Below are positions 7,360 to 15,870 of a stretch of DNA of 64,000 bases, in pieces. The notes beneath the pieces are model-generated. The model saw only the letters and a list, made by a program, of their open reading frames with translations. It had not been told where the DNA came from and searched no databases. The position numbers and the translations under genes are program-made. This DNA comes from Candidatus Latescibacterota bacterium (GTDB lineage: Bacteria > Latescibacterota > UBA2968 > UBA8231), in contig CBDETY010000003.1 of assembly GCA_965243025.1 (NCBI GenBank), forward strand, positions 2,880,001 to 2,944,000, read 5' to 3'. Within the stretch, counting starts at the first letter, position 1. Each line of letters opens with the position of its first letter.

Positions 7360-9377
7360 CCCTCTCCGCTGACGCGGGCGAACCCGTCGGGCGCCCTCAT
7401 GTTCTCTGCCGCGGCGCGGATCCAGGCGCCGGAGCGGACGCGTTCCTCGACCCGCAGGTGGGCGACCTCGCCGTCGAGGCGGCTGCAGCCCTCGAGCTCG
7501 CCGACCTGCACCCCGGCGCTGCAGGCCCCCAGTTCTCCCTTCCCCTTCGCGGTCCCCGCCAGCGTCCCGTCGATGTAGAGCCGCGCCTCCGCCCCGTCGT
7601 AGACCCCGGCGACGTGATGCCACCCCGGACCCGGGTTGCAGTTTGCCCGGGCGCTCACCGGACCGGTCCTGGTGTTGACGGTGAACACCGGCCCGGGCAC
7701 CGACGCCCCGAGGCCGCCGTTGTGGCCGCAGTCCATGTACTTCAGCAGGAACCGCGCCCCCTCCCCGGCGGTGTCGTAGCGCAGCACCTGCCCGTGCGGG
7801 AAGATCGAGCCGTCCCCGGTCGGGTCGCCCGGCTCCCCGTCCTTGCGCCACGGCGCGAAGTAGAGGAAACGGCCGTCGAAGGCGCCGCCGTTGAAGCCGC
7901 CGGGATTGGGGGGCGCCAGCAGCGAGCCGTCCGCGGCGCTCCAGGCCTCCCCGTCGGCGAACTCCATGCTGGTGTCGTAGCGCAGCAGCTCGCAGTGGAA
8001 GCCGCTCTCGCCGCCGCCGCTGTAGAAGGGGATGAAGTACACGTAGCGCCCGTCGAACAGGGCGCCGTCGAAGCCGCGGCACTCCAGCCCGGAGGTCCCG
8101 GCGACGTCGCGCGCCTCCCAGCCCGCGCCCGCCTCGAACCGGGCCCCGGTGTCGAAGCGCACCACCGCAGCGTTGTCGCCGTAGGGCGCGTAGTAGACGT
8201 AGCGGCCGTCGAACACCGCCCCGACGCACATGGCGATCGGCGGATCGGTGGCGCCGCGGATGTCGCAGGCCTCCCAGCTCCCCGGATCCGCGAACGGCCG
8301 GCGGGTGTCGTAGCGCAGCATGTTGCCGCGGCGGCTCAGGGGGGCGAAGTACACATGGCGGCCGTCGAAAACCGCCCCGTCGTAGCAGGAGCAGGCCACC
8401 CCGCCGGTGTTTCCCGCGTCCCAGGTCTCGTAGCTGCCCGCCTCGTCGAACGGCGCCGCGGTGTCGTAGCGGATCACCAGACCGCTCCCGCCGCCGCTGC
8501 CGTCGTATCCGGGGACGTAGTAGATGTAGCGCCCGTCGAAGGCGCACCCCTGGGAGGAGCGCGCCAGCCCGAGGTCGAACGCCTCCCAGGCGGCCGGGTC
8601 GCGGAAGTCGCCGTTGCCGGCGTCGTAACGCAGCATGGCGGAGTGGAGCTTCCCGCCGCTGTTGTGGCGCGGCACGTAGTAGACGTAACGGCCGGCGCAA
8701 ACGACCCCGTAGTACCCGGTGGTGTCGAGCCCCGCGGTCCTGCCGGCGTCGCGGGCCGCCCAGCTTCCCGGGTCGTCGAAGCCGCCGTGGGTGTCGTAGC
8801 GCAGGGCCGTGCCGTGGCGCCCGGTGGTGTTGCACTGCGGCGAGAAATAGACGTAGCGGCCGTCGCACATCGCCCCGAAGAACCCCCGCGTCTCCAGGCC
8901 GTCGGTGGCGCCGGCGTCGTAGGTGGCGAAGCGCTCGAGAGCGGGCGCCAGGGGCCACTGCGAGGCGATCACTTGCATCTGTTCGGCACGGGATTCCCCG
9001 GCGCGGATCCAGGACTCGACGGTCAGGGCGCTGCCCCCGCCGTTCCCGCCGCTCGATTTGTCCGTCGCCCGCGCGGAAACTCCTGAAGCGGGGAACCGGC
9101 AGCTCCGGGTGAACGGGTCTTCGGGATTTCCGGAACCGCTGCCGCCGGGCACGGCGAAGAAGACGGTGTCGGCCGCCGCGGCTACCCCGGGCAGCAGCAC
9201 CCGGACCAGGGATTCCCCGGGGGTTCCGAACCGGACCCACGGAAGCTCCCTGCCGCTGGAGTCAGCGAACGCGAGGCCGGCTGCCGCCGCGCCCTCCGGG
9301 AGCCTCACCACCACCGGAAAATCCGCGAGATCGGCGGCCGCTGTCCCGGCGGGAATGGTGATGCGCAGCCGCTTCAT
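7356..9377 (-). CDS. LamG/ConA-like domain protein with an inserted 7-repeat beta-propeller and a DUF2341-like N-terminus
   Basis: N-terminal LADFPVVVRL..LAFADSSGRELPW. LTVESWIR precedes, and WHHVAGVYDG..RLYIDG follows, seven FDGRYVY.P..LRYDT repeats. Confidence 0.75.
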   Translation of the reverse strand: MKRLRITIPAGTAAADLADFPVVVRLPEGAAAAGLAFADSSGRELPWVRFGTPGESLVRVLLPGVAAAADTVFFAVPGGSGSGNPEDPFTRSCRFPASGVSARATDKSSGGNGGGSALTVESWIRAGESRAEQMQVIASQWPLAPALERFATYDAGATDGLETRGFFGAMCDGRYVYFSPQCNTTGRHGTALRYDTHGGFDDPGSWAARDAGRTAGLDTTGYYGVVCAGRYVYYVPRHNSGGKLHSAMLRYDAGNGDFRDPAAWEAFDLGLARSSQGCAFDGRYIYYVPGYDGSGGGSGLVIRYDTAAPFDEAGSYETWDAGNTGGVACSCYDGAVFDGRHVYFAPLSRRGNMLRYDTRRPFADPGSWEACDIRGATDPPIAMCVGAVFDGRYVYYAPYGDNAAVVRFDTGARFEAGAGWEARDVAGTSGLECRGFDGALFDGRYVYFIPFYSGGGESGFHCELLRYDTSMEFADGEAWSAADGSLLAPPNPGGFNGGAFDGRFLYFAPWRKDGEPGDPTGDGSIFPHGQVLRYDTAGEGARFLLKYMDCGHNGGLGASVPGPVFTVNTRTGPVSARANCNPGPGWHHVAGVYDGAEARLYIDGTLAGTAKGKGELGACSAGVQVGELEGCSRLDGEVAHLRVEERVRSGAWIRAAAENMRAPDGFARVSGEG

Positions 9378-9405
9378 CGCACCGCGCCGCCGCCGGATGG
9401 CTCCC

Positions 9406-10398
9406 TCAGCCCCCGACCGCCCGCATCAGGGTCTCCTGGACCAGCAGTTCGTGCTCGTACGGCCGGTCCGGCTCGCGCTCGCCGGTGACCGCCGCCAGGA
9501 ACGCGGCCAGCTCCTCGTCGTAGCAGCCCTGGCGCTCGCGGCCCTCCATTTCGACGGTCTGGACTCCCTTGCGGTAGCCGCCGCGGTCCTCGTCGAGGCA
9601 GAGTCGCACCCGGTCGCCCGGCTCGAACGGCTCGAGGATGATGGCGCTGCCCCGGGTGCCGTAGACCTCGAAGCGGCGCGCCATCGGCGACGTCTCCATG
9701 GCGGCGATGTCGACGACGGCGACGGCATTCTCGAACTCGTACACGCCGATGGTGTTGTCGCTGAACTCCGGGACCTCGCCGGTGTCGTTGCGCAGGAAGG
9801 CGGTGACCTTTTGCGGGCGCCCCAGCATCCAGACGACCTGGTCGAGCATGTGGCCGGCGAGGTCGTAATGGACGCCGCCGCGGTGGGCATCGGCGATGCG
9901 CTGGCGCGCCTCGGGCGGGACGCTCGTCGACATGTGGGCCCGCACCGAGAAGACGTCGCCGAGGAAGCCCGACCGCGCCCACTCCGTCACCTGCCGGAAA
10001 AGCGGGTTGTAGCGCAGCATGTACCCCATCTGCACGACGAGGTTGCCGGCGCGCGCCGCGGCGATCACCCGCTCCCACTGCCGGTAGTCGTCGCCGGCCG
10101 GCTTGTCGTACCAGGCGTGCTTGCCGGCGGCGACGATCTGCTCCGTCTGGTCGAGGCTGTTGGAGTTGCGCCCCTCCGAGGCGACGGCGACGATGCTGTC
10201 GTCGGCGAGCATCTCCCCGGCGCTGTCGTACCAGTGCAGGCCTTCGTACTCCGGGTTGTCGGCGAACCTCCGGCGGTCCTCCTCTTCCGGCTCGAAGACC
10301 CCGGCGACCTCGACGCCGGGGTTCGTCCTCATGGAACGCATCTTTCCGGCCGCGTGCCCGTGCCCGATGCCGAGCTGGGCCATGCGCACTTTTCCCAT
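9406..10398 (-). CDS. Gfo/Idh/MocA family oxidoreductase
   Basis: AQLGIGHGHA, GKHAWYDKP, QMGYMLRYNP, DLAGHMLD. Confidence 0.88.
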   Translation of the reverse strand: MGKVRMAQLGIGHGHAAGKMRSMRTNPGVEVAGVFEPEEEDRRRFADNPEYEGLHWYDSAGEMLADDSIVAVASEGRNSNSLDQTEQIVAAGKHAWYDKPAGDDYRQWERVIAAARAGNLVVQMGYMLRYNPLFRQVTEWARSGFLGDVFSVRAHMSTSVPPEARQRIADAHRGGVHYDLAGHMLDQVVWMLGRPQKVTAFLRNDTGEVPEFSDNTIGVYEFENAVAVVDIAAMETSPMARRFEVYGTRGSAIILEPFEPGDRVRLCLDEDRGGYRKGVQTVEMEGRERQGCYDEELAAFLAAVTGEREPDRPYEHELLVQETLMRAVGG

Positions 10399-10404
10399 GT
10401 CCTC

Positions 10405-11424
10405 CTACTCTCCTTGTGTGTCGATCAGAACCTTCATCAGCTCGCCGCCCGCCTCGATCTCCTCGAAGACCCCCTGCAGGTCGCCGAGCCCCCGGCGCGC
10501 CGAGATCAGACGCTCCAGCGGCAGCTCCCCCGAGGCGACCAGCGCTATCGCCGCGTCGTAGTCCTCCGGCTCGTACACGCGCACCCCGCACAGCCTCAGC
10601 TCGCGCCAGAAGAAGCGGAACAGGTCGATCCGCGGCGGATCGGCGAAGATGGCGACGACGACGATGCGGCCCCGCGTGCGCACTAGCTCCGTCATCACCC
10701 GCGCCCCCTCCTGGGTGCCGGAGACTTCGAAGAGCACGTCGGCGCCCCCGGGGCTGTGCTCCTCCACCGCCCCGGCGAGGTCGCGGGCGCGCGGGTCCAC
10801 CGTCTCGAAACCGAGGCCGCGGGCGAACTCCACCCGGAACGGGTTGACCTCGGCCAGCAGCACCTCGGCCCCGGCGTGGCGGCAGACCAGGGCGACCAGG
10901 GTGCCGATCGGGCCGCCGCCGATGACTACCGCCCGTTCCCCCGGTTTCACCTCGCCGAGACGCACGTCGTGGCAGGCCACGGCGAGCGGCTCGATCAGGG
11001 CGGCAAGCTCCATCGAGATGCCGTCCGGCAGCCGGTGCAGGGTGTGGGCGGGAACCGTCCAGGAAGCCTGGAAGGCCCCGGGGCTGTCGATGCCGATGAA
11101 GTTGAGGTTCTGGCAGATGTGCCCGTGTCCGCGGCGGCAGGCCGGGCAGCTGTGGCACGGCTCCAGCGGCCGCACCACGACGCCGTCCCCCGGGCCCCAG
11201 CCGTCGACCCCGGGACCGGTCTCGGCGACCGTCCCGGACATCTCGTGGCCGATCACCACCGGCGTGCGCACGCGCTGGTCCATGTGGCCCTGGAAGATGT
11301 GCAGGTCGGTTCCGCACACGCCGCACCAGGCGACCTCGACCCTGACCTGTCCGGGCCCCGGCGCCACCGGTTCGCACGGCCCCACCCCGATCTTCTTTCC
11401 GCCCTCGTAGAACGCCGCTTGCAC
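10405..11424 (-). CDS. Zn-dependent medium-chain alcohol/polyol dehydrogenase
   Basis: CGVCGTDLH, GHEMSG, structural Zn CxxCxxC..C, GGGPIG. GTG 11424 with GGGAG RBS. Confidence 0.92.
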   Translation of the reverse strand: MQAAFYEGGKKIGVGPCEPVAPGPGQVRVEVAWCGVCGTDLHIFQGHMDQRVRTPVVIGHEMSGTVAETGPGVDGWGPGDGVVVRPLEPCHSCPACRRGHGHICQNLNFIGIDSPGAFQASWTVPAHTLHRLPDGISMELAALIEPLAVACHDVRLGEVKPGERAVVIGGGPIGTLVALVCRHAGAEVLLAEVNPFRVEFARGLGFETVDPRARDLAGAVEEHSPGGADVLFEVSGTQEGARVMTELVRTRGRIVVVAIFADPPRIDLFRFFWRELRLCGVRVYEPEDYDAAIALVASGELPLERLISARRGLGDLQGVFEEIEAGGELMKVLIDTQGE

Positions 11425-11482
11425 GGTTGCTGTCTCCCTGGGAAGCACTTGCGGCAGCCTACGTCCCGCCGCGAAGGGGCAG

Positions 11483-11511
11483 ATAATAGCGAGGACGCCT
11501 GCTGTTCTCAA
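11483..11511 (-). promoter_or_regulatory. Sigma70-type promoter of the dehydrogenase operon
   Basis: Minus strand TTGAGA (11511-11506), 17 nt, TATTAT (11488-11483), about 60 nt upstream of GTG 11424. Confidence 0.6.
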
Positions 11512-11567
11512 TCGCGGCGGCGGGGGCAAGCGGATGCCGGAGGCCTGGGAAAGCCGGCCGCCTGCTC

Positions 11568-11583
11568 CTGCAACAGGTTGCAG
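11568..11583. promoter_or_regulatory. Palindromic operator-like site
   Basis: CTGCAAC-AG-GTTGCAG, one mismatch from the LacI/CcpA-like TGnAAnCGnTTnCA pattern. Confidence 0.35.
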
Positions 11584-11804
11584 TGGAATGAAATACAGCC
11601 GCTCCGGCGTTGCGGTTGCAAGGTGTAGCGGATTGAACGGACGGGCGGAAGCAGCGGCCGATCCCGGGCGGCGCGGAGGCCGGGGATCAGGCAGCCGGGC
11701 CAGCCGCGGCCGACGCGGGTGCAATGCGGGCGGGATGGAGCGCAGGACGGGGTAGAGCTTCCGGGGGGCGCGGCGGGCAGGAAGGGCAGCCAGAGACCGC
11801 CGTA

Positions 11805-11839
11805 CAAAACAACAGGAGGCAACCAAGGTTGCCTCCTGT
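11805..11839 (-). terminator. Intrinsic terminator
   Basis: Perfect inverted repeat ACAGGAGGCAACC/GGTTGCCTCCTGT (11812-11839) followed on the minus strand by TGTTTTG. Confidence 0.7.
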
Positions 11840-11978
11840 CGGGGAAAAGGGCCGGACGGGGGAGTAAATGTCCGTCCGGCGAACTGGCATCCGGCACGAG
11901 GCGGCCCTGCCGGACGCCCCCACCCGTTTCCGGGTGAAATCGGCGCCGGAATCGCTCCCGGCGTCGATCGTGGGGATT
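11805..11978 (-). ncRNA. Candidate structured small RNA 2 (about 170 nt)
   Basis: Own promoter (TTGACT-17-TAGGAT), four consecutive hairpins including CACCCG-GAAA-CGGGUG, then an intrinsic terminator. No credible ORF. Confidence 0.55.
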
Positions 11979-11984
11979 GGCCAA

Positions 11985-12013
11985 ATCCTACGAATCGGCC
12001 CGGGGAAAGTCAA
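11985..12013 (-). promoter_or_regulatory. Sigma70-type promoter P2
   Basis: Minus strand TTGACT (12013-12008), 17 nt, TAGGAT (11990-11985). Confidence 0.65.
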
Positions 12014-12015
12014 GG

Positions 12016-12055
12016 AAAAGAAAAGGCCGACAGGATCGCCTCTGTCCTGCCGGCC
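12016..12055 (-). terminator. Intrinsic terminator
   Basis: Minus strand GGCCGGCAGGA-loop-UCCUGUCGGCC followed by UUUUCUUUU. Confidence 0.7.
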
Positions 12056-12104
12056 CGCAAAAAGCTCGCCACCGTCGAAGGGTGACCGGCTTTTTGTTTT
12101 GAAC
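12016..12104 (-). ncRNA. Candidate small RNA 1 (about 90 nt)
   Basis: Starts 7 nt after the TAGTAT -10 box. One AAAAAGC..GCUUUUU-closed hairpin, then a terminator hairpin and U-tract. Confidence 0.5.
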
Positions 12105-12110
12105 AGCCCA

Positions 12111-12139
12111 ATACTACTTTCATACCGTCTGCTTGTCAA
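12111..12139 (-). promoter_or_regulatory. Sigma70-type promoter P1
   Basis: Minus strand TTGACA (12139-12134), 17 nt, TAGTAT (12116-12111), in a locally AT-rich patch. Confidence 0.75.
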
Positions 12140-12203
12140 GCGAAAATCTAGGCCTAGGTCTTGTTTTTTATGCGGTTGTACTCAGTCAGCCCGGAGGTTT
12201 GAG

Positions 12204-12836
12204 ATGCCCGGTACAGTCTTTTATATCGCCGATCCGATGTGCTCCTGGTGCTGGGGGTTCGCCCCTGCCCTCGCCGCGGTCGAGGCGGAGCTGCCTGCCG
12301 AGGTCCCCCTGCGCTACGTAATGGGGGGCCTTGCCCCCGACTCCGACGAACCGATGGCACCGGAGGTGCGCGCCTACGTGCAGGAGAACTGGCGCGCCGT
12401 CGAGGCGGAGACCGGTGCCTCCTTCAACTGGGATTTCTGGGAGCGCTGCCTCCCCCGGCGTTCCACCTACCCCGCCTGCAGGGCGGTCCTGGCGGCGCGG
12501 CAGCAGGACTCGGGGCCGGCGATGTTCCGGGCCGTCCAGCGCGCCTACTACGCCGAGGCCCGCAATCCCTCCGACCTCGAGACCCTCACCGCCCTCGCGG
12601 AGGAACTCGGGCTCGACGCCGCCGGCTTCGAGCGGGATATCGCCTCCCCCGAGGTCGAAGCGCAGCTGCAGGGGGACTTCGAGACCCGCCGGCGGCTCGG
12701 GGTGCGCGAGTTTCCCACCCTGCTGCTCGAATCGCCGGCAGGTTCGGGGAAGAAGGCCCTTCTCGCCCGCGGCTGGGCGTCCTCCCGCGCCGTCCTCGCC
12801 GCCCTTCGCCGGGCTCTGGGCGCCGCGGCTGACTGA
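12204..12836 (+). CDS. DsbA/FrnE-like thioredoxin-fold protein
   Basis: YIADPMCSWCWGF, RSTYPACRA, GVREFPTL (cis-Pro loop). GGAGG RBS. Confidence 0.9.
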   Translation: MPGTVFYIADPMCSWCWGFAPALAAVEAELPAEVPLRYVMGGLAPDSDEPMAPEVRAYVQENWRAVEAETGASFNWDFWERCLPRRSTYPACRAVLAARQQDSGPAMFRAVQRAYYAEARNPSDLETLTALAEELGLDAAGFERDIASPEVEAQLQGDFETRRRLGVREFPTLLLESPAGSGKKALLARGWASSRAVLAALRRALGAAAD

Positions 12837-13001
12837 GCGCCCGCGGTCGCTTATGTTCCTCCCCGGCGCCGGCGGCCGGGGCGCATTTCCTCAGTCTTCG
12901 GGGCGGTCCTCGCGCCGAACCCGCACTCGTGCCCGGGGCCGGCCGCACCTGACCTTCAAGAAGTGGTTCCCCACCCTGCCGGGTTTCCCTGGAGTAGATG
13001 A

Positions 13002-13991
13002 ATGAGCTCTGAACGATTCCTGATCACCGGCGCCTACGGCTGCGTCGGAGCCTGGGCCGCCCGCCTCCTGGTCGCCGAGGGGGTTCCGGTCTGGACCTAC
13101 GACCTGGGCGGCGACCCCCACCGCCTGCGGCTGGCGATGGACGACGGGGAGATGGCCGCCGTCCACATGGAGACCGGCGACATTACCGACGCGGCGGCCT
13201 TCGACCGCGTCGTCGCCGAAAACGGCATCACCCACATCGTTCACCTCGCCGCCCTGCAGGTCCCCCTGGTGCGCGCCGATCCGGTGGCCGGGGCCGCGGT
13301 GAACGTCGTCGGCACGACCGTCGTCCTCGAGACCGCCCGGCGCCGCGCCGACCAGGTTCGCGGAGTCGCCTTCGCCAGCTCCTTCGGAGTGTACGGCGAT
13401 CCGGAAAACTACCCCCCCGGACCGATAGCCCACGACGCGCCGCTGACGCCGCCGACCCTCTACGGGGTCTTCAAGCAGGCGAACGAGGGAACCGCGGCCG
13501 TGTATTGGCGCGAGAACCGGCTGCCGTCGATCGGCCTGAGGCCCTGCGTCGTGTACGGCCCCGGCAGGGACCAGGGCTGGACCTCGACGCCGACCAAGGC
13601 GATGCTCGCCGCCGCGCTCGGCCGCGAGTACCGCATCACCTACGGGGGCACCCTCGTCTACCACCACGCCGAGGACGTCGCCGCGGCGATGATCCTGGCG
13701 GCCCGCACCCGGATCGAAGGGGCCCCGGTCTACAACCTCGGGGGCAGCACCGCCCACATGCGGGATATCGTCGCCGCCATCGAGGAGGCGGTTCCAGGCG
13801 CCAGGGGCAGCATCAGCTTCGATCCGGCGGCCCTGCCCCATCCCTCCGAGGTCGACGACTCCCAGCTGAGCGCCGACATCCCCGGCATCCGCTGGCGGTC
13901 CCTCGCCGACGGGGTGCGCGACTCGGTCGAGCTCTTCCGCAGGGCGGCTGCGGCCGGCCGCATCGACGTCGAGCGCGCCCTCGCCCAGTAG
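13002..13991 (+). CDS. NAD-dependent epimerase/dehydratase (extended SDR)
   Basis: LITGAYGCVG, HLAA, ASS, YGVFK (YxxxK), LRP.VVYGPG. Confidence 0.9.
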   Translation: MSSERFLITGAYGCVGAWAARLLVAEGVPVWTYDLGGDPHRLRLAMDDGEMAAVHMETGDITDAAAFDRVVAENGITHIVHLAALQVPLVRADPVAGAAVNVVGTTVVLETARRRADQVRGVAFASSFGVYGDPENYPPGPIAHDAPLTPPTLYGVFKQANEGTAAVYWRENRLPSIGLRPCVVYGPGRDQGWTSTPTKAMLAAALGREYRITYGGTLVYHHAEDVAAAMILAARTRIEGAPVYNLGGSTAHMRDIVAAIEEAVPGARGSISFDPAALPHPSEVDDSQLSADIPGIRWRSLADGVRDSVELFRRAAAAGRIDVERALAQ

Positions 13992-14008
13992 GTGGCTCCG
14001 CCCCGGTT

Positions 14009-14887
14009 TCAGTCCGTCGAGATCCTGTAGGAGGTCTGCCCGATCACCTCGTGATCAGATGCCCGCGCCAGCTCCATGGCGCGTTCGGTGACCGGGAAGC
14101 AGTAGCGGGTTTCCGCCGACATCCTGATGAACCCCTCGGCGTAGGCGCAGCCCCCGGCCTGCCCGAAGGCGCCGTCGCTGGTCTCGATCCGCTTGCGCGC
14201 GTAGGCGCCGCCGTACCCCTGGCTGACCAGGGCGTCGAGGGCGGCGAGCTTCCTGTCGACGACGTCGGTGATGTCGATGAACAGGTCGTTGTAGTACCCG
14301 CCTTCGGAGCCCCAGACGTCGCGCGGCAGGGGCGCCCCCCCGCAGCCGAAGAAGAAGACCTGGGCCACCTTGTGGGGCGGACGCCGGTCCCCCGGGTCGA
14401 CCCCGGCGGCGTGGGACAGCGCGTGCATGACGATCTGCCCGGCGGTGGCGTGGGCGTTCGTCTTGCCGTCTCCCTCCCTGGGGAAGTGGGTCAGCACGAT
14501 GTCGGGCTTGAGCTCCCGGAGCAGGCGGGCGACGGTCCGCACCGCCTCCTCGGTCACCATCAGCACGGCGTCGTCGATCCCGAGAAAGCGGACCTCCTCG
14601 ACCCCGAGGGAGCTGCAGGCCCTGCGCACCTCTTCCGCCTTGACGTCGGAGCGCTCCGCCATCAGTTGCTTCAGCTCCCCGGCTTCGGGAACCTCTTCGC
14701 GGTGGAACATCCCGTCGCTGATCACGGCGTCGTGCACCCGGGCGCCGTGGGTCAGCACCACGCATCCCACCCAGTCGCCGCGCGCCGCGTGATGGGCCAT
14801 GGCGCCGCCGGACTGGTCGAAGATGTCGGCGGGATGGGCGCCGATCGACAGGATTCGCAGGGGTTCCGCACTCCCGCCGGCGCTCAT
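14009..14887 (-). CDS. PIG-L family protein, GalB (4-oxalomesaconate hydratase)-like
   Basis: IGAHPADIFDQSGGAMAHH, LTHG, KPDIVLTH, VSQGY, YAEGF. Confidence 0.75.
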   Translation of the reverse strand: MSAGGSAEPLRILSIGAHPADIFDQSGGAMAHHAARGDWVGCVVLTHGARVHDAVISDGMFHREEVPEAGELKQLMAERSDVKAEEVRRACSSLGVEEVRFLGIDDAVLMVTEEAVRTVARLLRELKPDIVLTHFPREGDGKTNAHATAGQIVMHALSHAAGVDPGDRRPPHKVAQVFFFGCGGAPLPRDVWGSEGGYYNDLFIDITDVVDRKLAALDALVSQGYGGAYARKRIETSDGAFGQAGGCAYAEGFIRMSAETRYCFPVTERAMELARASDHEVIGQTSYRISTD

Positions 14888-15870
14888 GACCGCTCCAGGG
14901 GAATGGGAACGCGGACGTTGCCGCGGACCTGCGACTGCAGGCAGGCGAGCATCATCTCGACGACCGCCAGGCCGTCGCGGCCGGTGCAGGAGAGCTCCCC
15001 TTCACCGTCGAGGACGCTGACCAGCTCGCGGACCCCGGCTTCGATCCCCTCGAACTCCCACTGCGGCGCCGCAACCGGTTCGCGCTGCTCGCCGCGGTCG
15101 AGGAAGGCGTTCTCCCCCTCGATCAGGAGGCGCCCCTCCGTGCCGCTGACGATGAACTCGGTCCGCCGCTGGGCCCGCTTGTCCCCGTGGTACACCCCGC
15201 GCACCCCGTTGTCGAAGCGGATCAGGGCGTTGGCGCTCGGCTCGGTGGCCGGATCGTGGCCGCCGTCCCCGCGGTACTCCCCGTACTCTTCATACCCGTC
15301 TTCGAGCTCGGCGACGACCCACTGCGGGCGGCCCCCGGCGAACCACATGATGGCGTCGAGCATGTGGGTGCCGTTGCGGAACAGCATCGAGCGGGAGCTG
15401 TGGAACAGCAGCACGACGCTGCGCACCTCGCCGATGGCCCCTTCGGCCGCCAACTCCTGGCAATGGTGCCAGAGGGGGTACCAGTGGCGGGTGTGGTCGA
15501 CGGACAGCAGGGTGCCGCTGGCCTCGGCGGCCGCGACCATGCGGTCGGCCTCGGCGAGGGTGGTCGCCAGCGGCTTCTCGCAGAAGATCCCCTTCACCCC
15601 GGCTTCGGCCGCGTCCACCGCCATGGTCGCGTGGGCGTTGTCCCCGGTGGCTATGGTGACGATGTCGGGCCTGGCCTCATCGAGCATCTCGCGGTAGTCG
15701 CTGTACATCTTCAGGCCGGGGTTCGTCGGCCGGAACTCCTCCTCGAAGCTCTGCCGCTGCTCTTCGACGAGGTCGCATCCGGCCACCACCTCGGCGTTGT
15801 CGAGCCCGTCCGCGCCCCGGGCATGGCGGTTTCCGATCCCCCTGCAGCCGATTACTCCTACTCTGTACAT
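14884..15870 (-). CDS. Gfo/Idh/MocA family oxidoreductase
   Basis: VGVIGCRGIG, IFCEKPLA, NGTHMLD. Confidence 0.9.
   Translation of the reverse strand: MYRVGVIGCRGIGNRHARGADGLDNAEVVAGCDLVEEQRQSFEEEFRPTNPGLKMYSDYREMLDEARPDIVTIATGDNAHATMAVDAAEAGVKGIFCEKPLATTLAEADRMVAAAEASGTLLSVDHTRHWYPLWHHCQELAAEGAIGEVRSVVLLFHSSRSMLFRNGTHMLDAIMWFAGGRPQWVVAELEDGYEEYGEYRGDGGHDPATEPSANALIRFDNGVRGVYHGDKRAQRRTEFIVSGTEGRLLIEGENAFLDRGEQREPVAAPQWEFEGIEAGVRELVSVLDGEGELSCTGRDGLAVVEMMLACLQSQVRGNVRVPIPLERS

Follow-up and report, generated by a model that had tools for sequence, protein, structure and literature searches.

Hairpin loops that carry C-rich, anti-Shine-Dalgarno-like motifs are a feature of the 6C RNA of Actinobacteria and of the CcsR or 'cuckoo' RNAs of Alphaproteobacteria, and the CcsR genes stand in tandem. 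Here we analyse a pair of tandem small RNA (sRNA) genes in a stretch of 64,000 nucleotides (nt) from the genome of a Candidatus Latescibacterota bacterium (assembly GCA_965243025.1, contig CBDETY010000003.1, positions 2,880,001 to 2,944,000 of the forward strand). We call this whole stretch the window, and all coordinates below count from its first letter. To our knowledge, this phylum has no cultured member. The closest described systems are sRNAs of the RoxS/RsaE type, which pair through C-rich single strands with G-rich ribosome-binding sites (PMC8216469, PMC5419742, PMC6158497). RoxS has C-rich regions, and its sponge RosA, an RNA of ~229 nt, has G-rich regions (PMC8216469).

The locus studied here holds two promoter-to-terminator units on the minus strand (12139-11803), unit 1 of ~89 nt and unit 2 of ~176 nt, in the right part of a ~780-nt spacer between a gene for a DsbA protein and one for a Zn-dependent alcohol dehydrogenase (Zn-ADH). 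We show the two units, their promoters, their helices and their conservation as a pair, and read them as two autonomous small-RNA genes arranged head to tail. Each RNA forms a new family within a known kind. Unit 2 is most likely a trans-acting, base-pairing riboregulator, with ribosome-binding sites as its presumed place of action. Our explanation of the whole locus, to which we assign a probability of roughly 0.55, is that unit 2 would block ribosome-binding sites in trans, with unit 1 as its pairing antagonist.

Two promoter-to-terminator units with conserved signals

A consensus scan of positions 9000-15000 returned exactly three promoter sites and placed all of them on the minus strand; shuffled sequences (n = 50) gave 0.1 +/- 0.5 sites. 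Promoter 1 (TTGACA-17-TAGTAT, 12139-12111) has a predicted start near 12104 and precedes unit 1, whose predicted ends are 12104 and 12016; promoter 2 (TTGACT-17-TAGGAT, 12013-11985) has a predicted start near 11978 and precedes unit 2, with predicted ends at 11978 and 11803. Promoter 3 (TTGAGA-17-TATTAT, 11511-11483) serves the downstream genes for Zn-ADH and a Gfo/Idh/MocA oxidoreductase and is given for context only. Both units are backed by their predicted folds and by matches to covariance models described below. Unit 1 (12105-12016) folds as two hairpins with an energy of -42.4 kcal/mol (z -4.5) and unit 2 (11979-11803) as four hairpins plus a terminator with -101.3 kcal/mol (z -7.7); in neither case was any of 200 shuffled sequences as good.

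These results bear on an earlier note, made by a model from the letters of the window, which had described two minus-strand promoter-terminator units and a third, separate promoter, had held near-consensus promoters to be improbable by chance, and had drawn unit 1 with two hairpins and unit 2 with four, one of them with a GAAA loop. All of these elements are present at their places, the shuffled controls agree on the promoters, and the two folds are borne out by their z-scores. The note had also ended unit 2 in a perfect 13-bp inverted repeat with a U-rich tail; the inverted repeat and the tail were found, but the stem has 14 pairs, closed by a 4-nt loop.

Both promoters are retained among the homologous loci. 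The -10 element of promoter 1, TAGTATT, is invariant, and its -35 element reads TTGAC in 15 of 16 sequences (TTGGC in genome G007; G and g numbers are our handles for genomes and genera), with a variable spacer between them. Promoter 2 follows the pattern TTGAC[AT]-17-TAnnnT in all 15 sequences with DNA at this place, and was recognised by eye in 7 further sequences. Its 17-nt spacers are unrelated in sequence, as is the DNA between terminator 1 and promoter 2, which varies from 17 to 90 nt between loci. Hexamers and spacing are thus kept while the spacer sequences are unrelated, the pattern expected of real promoters.

Structure and covariation of the two RNAs

We used three covariance models: R1 for promoter 1 plus unit 1, R2 for unit 2 from 8 close sequences, and R3 for unit 2 from 21 sequences, which scores 105 bits in the window. 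RNAalifold on a MAFFT alignment of all 14 unit-2 sequences had misdrawn hairpins H2 and H3, and the alignment was rebuilt from the 8 close sequences and realigned by model. In the resulting model-fitted alignment of 21 sequences, unit 2 has four helices with 41 pairs, 97.2% of the cells are paired, and 31 pairs are changed on both sides. Not one of five measures was reached in 500 shuffles, and slid controls were 33-50% paired.

Unit 2 begins with a C-rich tail, AAUCCCCAC (11978-11970), which is single-stranded in the predicted fold and occurs as CCAUCCCCA or AUCCCCA in 13 of the 14 sequences of alignment A4. It is followed by variable 5' hairpins (11969-11920): H1a (11969-11938), an extra hairpin seen in this genus only, and H1b (11937-11920), which carries the GAAA loop (CACCCGGAAACGGGUG) and is helix 1 of the family model, where 9 of 9 pairs are changed on both sides. 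Hairpin H2 (11918-11886), with 13 pairs of which 8 are changed on both sides, has the loop GGGCCGCCUCG, and the hexamer CGCCUC within it (11903-11898) is invariant in 21 of 21 sequences. Hairpin H3 (11880-11851; 7 pairs, 5 changed on both sides), as placed by the model alignment, has the C-rich loop ACAUUUACUCCC (11871-11860) with the motif CUCCCCC, which reads CUCCUAC in five sequences. A pyrimidine linker, CCUUUUCCC (11850-11842), single-stranded in the fold and UCUCCCU in most other genera, leads to the intrinsic terminator (11841-11803), which consists of the 14-bp stem, its loop and a U-rich tail and appears in the terminator scan as a hairpin at 11841-11810. Its helix has 12 pairs in the alignment, 9 of them changed on both sides, and its loop is C-rich in several genera as well.

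The conserved single strands of unit 2 are therefore the 5' tail (C)CAUCCCCAC (AUCCCCAC), the H2 loop CCGCCUCGU, the H3 loop CUCCCCC and the linker UCUCCCU. Unpaired columns hold 40% C and 17% G, and paired columns 32% C and 37% G. Two lineages have lost hairpin H3: G083 and a metagenome lineage represented by two contigs lack the whole hairpin with its CUCCCCC loop and keep the other parts of unit 2, so H3 is dispensable.

Unit 1 combines a 5' hairpin with a terminator hairpin. Hairpin 1 (12096-12058) forms in all 16 sequences folded; its outer stem differs widely between them, and the inner GUCAC...GGUG is retained. The terminator hairpin (12056-12024; 12046-12029 in the scan of 9000-15000) presents the invariant loop C-N-GAGGCGA, with GAGGCG at 12042-12037, and is followed by a U-rich tail to 12016. 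Its 13 pairs are formed in 99.5% of the cells of 16 sequences, and 6 are changed on both sides. In several genera a C or G interrupts the tail. In both units, then, the stems are variable and the loops are fixed.

The pair is conserved in order and orientation

In an initial DNA search, 6 of 41 related genomes had the region, among them the genome analysed here. Two genomes of the same genus share 90% identity over 359 of 381 nt, and three from other genera of the family ~70-73% over 163-214 nt. With the covariance models we extended the search to 76 genomes of the family. R1 gave 16 matches at E <= 0.01, of which 13 are real, and three metagenome contigs were added to these; the three weakest (31-33 bits), all in genus g14, are ordinary terminators that follow genes. 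R3 gave 21 matches, 19 of them at 65.6-164.6 bits and one per genome. The holders of unit 2 fall in 7 of 18 genera (g1 3/3, g2 1/1, g6 2/2, g8 1/1, g12 1/1, g15 1/1 and g18 10/10 genomes), and R3 did not find the unit in the other 57 of the 76 genomes, many of which are closed. Among 88 genomes from 13 further families of the phylum there was no real match, the sole hit, at 24.8 bits in G152, being left uninspected; the phylum-wide sample for unit 2 comprised 151 genomes.

The remaining R3 matches in the family (27 bits or less) are a tRNA-Met gene with a terminator, or coding-like sequence. Some weak matches of R2 and R3 (21-28 bits) are likewise tRNA-Met plus terminator (four loci recognised by ARAGORN, the others by eye), with two more that are coding-like. 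This tRNA-Met gene, followed by a strong terminator and lying downstream of a conserved gene, is the recurrent weak false match of the unit-2 models in the family.

Exact pattern scans of 185,579 species, with one genome each, found the pair's sequences in this lineage only. Three of the eight stretches from the scan with the unit-1 loop pattern are real, the other five being coding sequence of unrelated bacteria, and all five stretches from a second scan are real. A pattern scan of a metagenome collection returned 6 stretches with 3 new sequences. A search of the 76 family genomes with a 17-mer, allowing up to 2 mismatches, was too noisy to use: 43 genomes matched, the reversed control matched too, and six recurring near-matches all lie within long open frames.

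Unit 1 stands directly upstream of unit 2 in 14 genomes (12 complete, 2 cut at a contig end), and the order and orientation of the pair are the same in all 14, though the surrounding genes change. The pair is also present in two further metagenome lineages, and one more contig stops after unit 1. In five species of g18 unit 2 stands alone, directly behind a PIG-L-family gene and under a TTGACA-17-TAAGGT promoter of its own; a search of these five genomes with R1 at E <= 1 gave no unit 1. Two short contigs of the bin G085 carry differing versions of the pair, the first truncated within unit 2 and the second within unit 1, which points either to two copies or to mixed strains in this bin.

The units are neither a known RNA family nor the leader of the downstream operon

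At the gathering score, Rfam 15 has no match in the 64-kb window. When positions 11300-12300 were searched by E-value (E <= 10), the best of 9 matches was LOOT, with 26.0 bits against a cut-off of 46.4 and lying partly over promoter 2; 8 homologous loci from other genera gave just two unrelated noise matches at E <= 1, and LOOT was not among them. Neither the 9 matches listed for the region at E <= 10 nor those in the 8 homologous loci at E <= 1 include one to an RsaE/RoxS model. Elsewhere in the genome we found signal recognition particle RNA (70 bits), transfer-messenger RNA (191 bits) and RNase P RNA (294 bits), as well as one 16S rRNA gene.

The 6S model (RF00013) has no match in the region or in the whole genome. 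We therefore considered unit 2 as a protein-binding housekeeping RNA, for instance a divergent 6S RNA of this lineage, with which its length of ~176 nt and the genome-wide silence of the 6S model would agree. This silence means little, since the same model detects 6S RNA in only 5 of 14 control genomes. The covariation of unit 2 describes four local hairpins and a free 5' tail, not a rod closed between the 5' and 3' ends around a central bubble, and its failure to appear in 57 of 76 family genomes is unlike a housekeeping RNA. A housekeeping role for unit 2 is thus very improbable.

The genes around the units differ from genus to genus. Upstream we found DsbA here and in the sister genomes, an epimerase in G016, GNAT genes in g18, g8 and g6, AP_endonuc_2 in G013, a beta-lactamase fold in G003, and PIG-L in the five genomes that have unit 2 alone. 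Downstream are Zn-ADH (here and in G013), Gfo/Idh/MocA (G021, and convergent in G009), a sulfatase (G086 and one metagenome contig) or a convergent PhyH gene (G083, G003 and one metagenome contig). In comparison with the sister genomes G001 and G002, homology stops behind the unit-2 terminator and starts again at 11514, 3 nt before the -35 element (11511) of promoter 3.

Because the flanking genes differ between genera, the units are not leaders. A spacer as long as the ~780 nt found here would suit an alternative in which the units are riboswitches or other cis-regulatory leaders of the downstream operon, or hairpins that arose by chance; the downstream genes differ or converge, however, the separate promoter 3 is kept in the sister genomes, conservation and covariation extend over 7 genera, and neither the window nor the 8 homologous loci contain a riboswitch match in Rfam. 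We regard this alternative as extremely improbable.

The earlier note had failed to match either unit to a known class of RNA, had thought them unlikely to be the leader of the downstream operon, had proposed an undescribed pair of non-coding RNAs and had suggested a search for homologues and covariation. The Rfam searches and the neighbourhoods agree with it on the first two points. Its proposal is supported by a pair conserved over 7 genera with its promoters kept and with compensatory changes in its helices, as counted on model-fitted alignments. A literature search found no relevant work on sRNAs in Latescibacterota or Latescibacteria.

Unit 2 as a candidate regulator and unit 1 as its candidate partner

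In the mechanism that we propose, the stable, covarying helices of unit 2 would hold out its conserved G-poor, C-rich single-stranded motifs, and these would pair with G-rich ribosome-binding sites of putative mRNA targets and block their translation, without Hfq. The 3' end of the organism's own 16S rRNA reads GGAUCACCUCCUUUCU, and the H2 loop CGCCUCGU agrees with CACCUCCU in 6 of 8 positions, its CGCCUC resembling CACCUC of the 16S tail. Given their likeness to the anti-Shine-Dalgarno end of 16S rRNA, the motifs of unit 2 would be expected to pair with G-rich ribosome-binding sites. We searched the genome for Hfq and CsrA and found neither. From the RoxS-like anatomy, the likeness to the 16S tail and the failure to find Hfq and CsrA, we infer that unit 2 occludes ribosome-binding sites in trans.

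Unit 1 would be made from its own, separately controlled promoter and would present the invariant, Shine-Dalgarno-like GAGGCGA in the loop of its terminator hairpin. By pairing of this loop with CGCCUC in unit 2, unit 1 could titrate or modulate unit 2, as an add-on antagonist. The GAGGCG of the unit-1 loop is the exact complement of CGCCUC in unit 2, whereas its match to the 16S tail includes a C.A mismatch. When we ranked accessible perfect helices between the two RNAs, leaving out G002 as nearly identical to G001, the helix GAGGCG x CGCCUC came first in 12 of 13 pairs and tied in the 13th, with 6-8 bp and a net energy of -4.0 to -9.7 kcal/mol. Folding of full-length duplexes of the two units gave meaningless long duplexes, and a second candidate contact, UGGGG x CCCCA between hairpin 1 of unit 1 and the 5' tail of unit 2, was dropped because it is not retained in this genus. 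We hold the pairing of unit 1 with unit 2 tentatively, as the least certain step of the mechanism.

Several observations weigh against the explanation. Shuffled loops of the same composition match the unpaired parts of unit 2 (at least 6 nt of Watson-Crick pairs) in 3.2-11.0% of trials (8 sequences). The six paired letters of the loops never vary, so there is no covariation between the RNAs, and the flanking letters do not covary either. In the 5 genomes without an R1 match to unit 1 (E <= 1), the CGCCUC loop is conserved to the same degree, so binding unit 1 cannot be its main job. The covariation within each RNA was counted on model-fitted alignments of sequences that are kin, 10 of the 21 unit-2 sequences coming from one genus. 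Finally, the public run data discussed below consist of contigs, which carry no strand, end or level.

The first three of these points would suit two unrelated trans-acting sRNAs that happen to lie side by side, unit 1 using GAGGCGA on mRNA targets of its own and the complementarity of the loops being coincidental. Such a coincidence has to be set against the adjacency, order and orientation kept in every genome with unit 1 despite changing surroundings, and against a helix that connects the two loops with the strongest conservation and ranks best among accessible helices in 12 of 13 pairs. We consider two unrelated sRNAs possible but somewhat doubtful, and continue with the reading of unit 2 as a trans-acting riboregulator and unit 1 as its antagonist.

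Public runs and the separation of the two units

A coral-reef metatranscriptome (7.3 million letters) holds only 3 contigs on the 1.8 kb compared, all at 11838-11961 with at least 95% identity and all inside unit 2. These contigs weakly support expression, and do so for unit 2 only. A sponge metatranscriptome, X1, contains a 90-97% identical relative and covers 11835-12033, 12047-12398 and 11200-11681. This run counts among the points against our explanation as well, because it covers promoter DNA and the start of the DsbA gene besides both units, and its contigs bridge the unit-1 terminator into unit 2. Since promoter DNA is covered too, X1 does not tell whether its contigs come from RNA or DNA, nor whether there is one transcript or two. 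We took it as saying nothing on expression, and made no use of uncovered stretches in X1 (11688-11809) or in the coral-reef run. Four runs of unspecified kind contain the whole stretch and may be the source DNA.

The bridging contigs, two of which run from 12032 or 12033, inside the unit-1 terminator, into unit 2, are what would be expected of one composite gene, with unit 1 as leader or attenuator, a long form of unit 2 arising by read-through and a short form from promoter 2. The interrupted tail of the unit-1 terminator in several genera points the same way. As X1 also covers promoter DNA, however, the bridge may be DNA. There is no conserved alternative (antiterminator) pairing, terminator 1 and promoter 2 are separated by a distance and a sequence that differ from locus to locus, and unit 2 stands without unit 1 in 5 genomes. 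A composite gene is for these reasons quite improbable, and we retain the reading of two separately transcribed genes.

A conserved element upstream of promoter 1 and the surroundings of the locus

Upstream of promoter 1 lies a conserved element (12169-12148, minus strand) made up of an A-tract, AAAAAACAA (12169-12161), and a palindrome, CTAGGCCTAG (12157-12148). Nearly all of 16 aligned sequences from 7 genera retain AAAAACA and CTAG-NN-CTAG, and the pattern CTAGNNCTAG-N6-16-TTGAC has a single occurrence in the 6.8-Mb genome, upstream of unit 1. The A-tract and the CTAG palindrome together are a possible binding site for a regulator. Most genera have a second CTAG palindrome further upstream. 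A GNAT acetyltransferase gene (~325-336 aa), encoded on the strand of the units, is the constant neighbour upstream of promoter 1 in g18, g8 and g6, and a palindrome TCTAG-N6-8-CTAGA is found between this gene and the CTAG-NN-CTAG site.

In the window, the gene to the right of the units (12204-12836, plus strand) points away from them and encodes a DsbA/thioredoxin-fold protein with Pfam matches to Thioredoxin_5 and DSBA. To the left are the Zn-ADH gene (10405 to ~11423, minus strand), with a GTG start near 11423 preceded by AGGGAGA, and the Gfo/Idh/MocA oxidoreductase gene (9406-10398, minus strand). These two genes are what really lies under a mechanical open reading frame of 667 aa (9374-11377, minus strand; Zn-ADH in another frame), which we rejected as a gene because it has no Pfam match and a low-complexity translation. 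Mechanical open reading frames across the unit region (11508-11984 and 11687-12139, minus strand) have no Pfam match, and we rejected a coding reading there because the alignment contains indels whose lengths are not multiples of three.

The G+C content is 0.52-0.56 at 12000-12299 and ~0.72 in the surrounding DNA. Between the unit-2 terminator and promoter 3, a stretch of ~290 nt (11515-11800) is without counterpart in the two genomes of the same genus, where the gap measures ~75 nt. It is strongly skewed, with a C-rich minus strand and a plus-strand GC skew of up to +0.29, and may be an insertion.

Discussion

As far as our literature search reaches, the two units are the first riboregulator pair from an uncultivated phylum, and a well-supported one; Rfam has no family for either of them. 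The two alignments are good enough to serve as seeds for two new RNA families. The pair offers a concrete, testable case of riboregulation free of Hfq in a probable symbiont of sponges or corals, a habitat with which the labels of the RNA runs containing part of the stretch agree. As unit 2 is visible in a very small metatranscriptome, it could serve as a marker of activity for these bacteria.

The boldest form of the explanation, which we put forward as a conjecture that may well fail, is a self-contained, physically linked module of regulator and antagonist: unit 2 would be a mimic of the anti-Shine-Dalgarno sequence that silences a set of mRNAs, and unit 1, made from a promoter with operator-like palindromes of its own, would be a Shine-Dalgarno decoy that fits unit 2 better than it fits the ribosome, with G-C in place of the C.A mismatch. 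If this is true, switching on one 89-nt RNA could release a whole regulon, and an sRNA would be inherited together with its sponge as one cassette, which would be a new arrangement, and one in a candidate phylum and in a genome where Hfq and CsrA were not found.

How the locus compares with described systems depends on the feature considered. In size unit 2 is similar to 6S RNA, from which it differs in its fold and in its patchy distribution within the family. In genetic layout the locus recalls CcsR, but the tandem units here are two different RNAs rather than repeats, and neither has an Rfam match to any family. The likeness is closer to RoxS of Bacillus subtilis and RsaE of Staphylococcus aureus, and to FsrA and CsfG: like them, unit 2 has a gene of its own, which begins at a sigma-70-type promoter and ends in an intrinsic terminator. 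With RoxS and RsaE it also shares several C-rich regions in loops and linkers, here four motifs with G-poor unpaired positions. Unlike RoxS and RsaE, it belongs to another phylum, is longer, has four or five hairpins and is without sequence or model similarity to them. One unit-2 motif, CGCCUCGU, is a near copy of the anti-Shine-Dalgarno sequence rather than a plain C-run. Unit 1 in turn resembles RosA of B. subtilis and RsaI of S. aureus, stand-alone sponge sRNAs with G-rich regions, in being a separate sRNA with its own promoter and in having a G-rich loop complementary to a C-rich loop of its presumed partner, the pairing being a prediction in our case. It is much shorter than RosA (~89 against ~229 nt) and has one G-rich site, which lies in the loop of its terminator. 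Unlike RosA, it is encoded directly beside its presumed partner.

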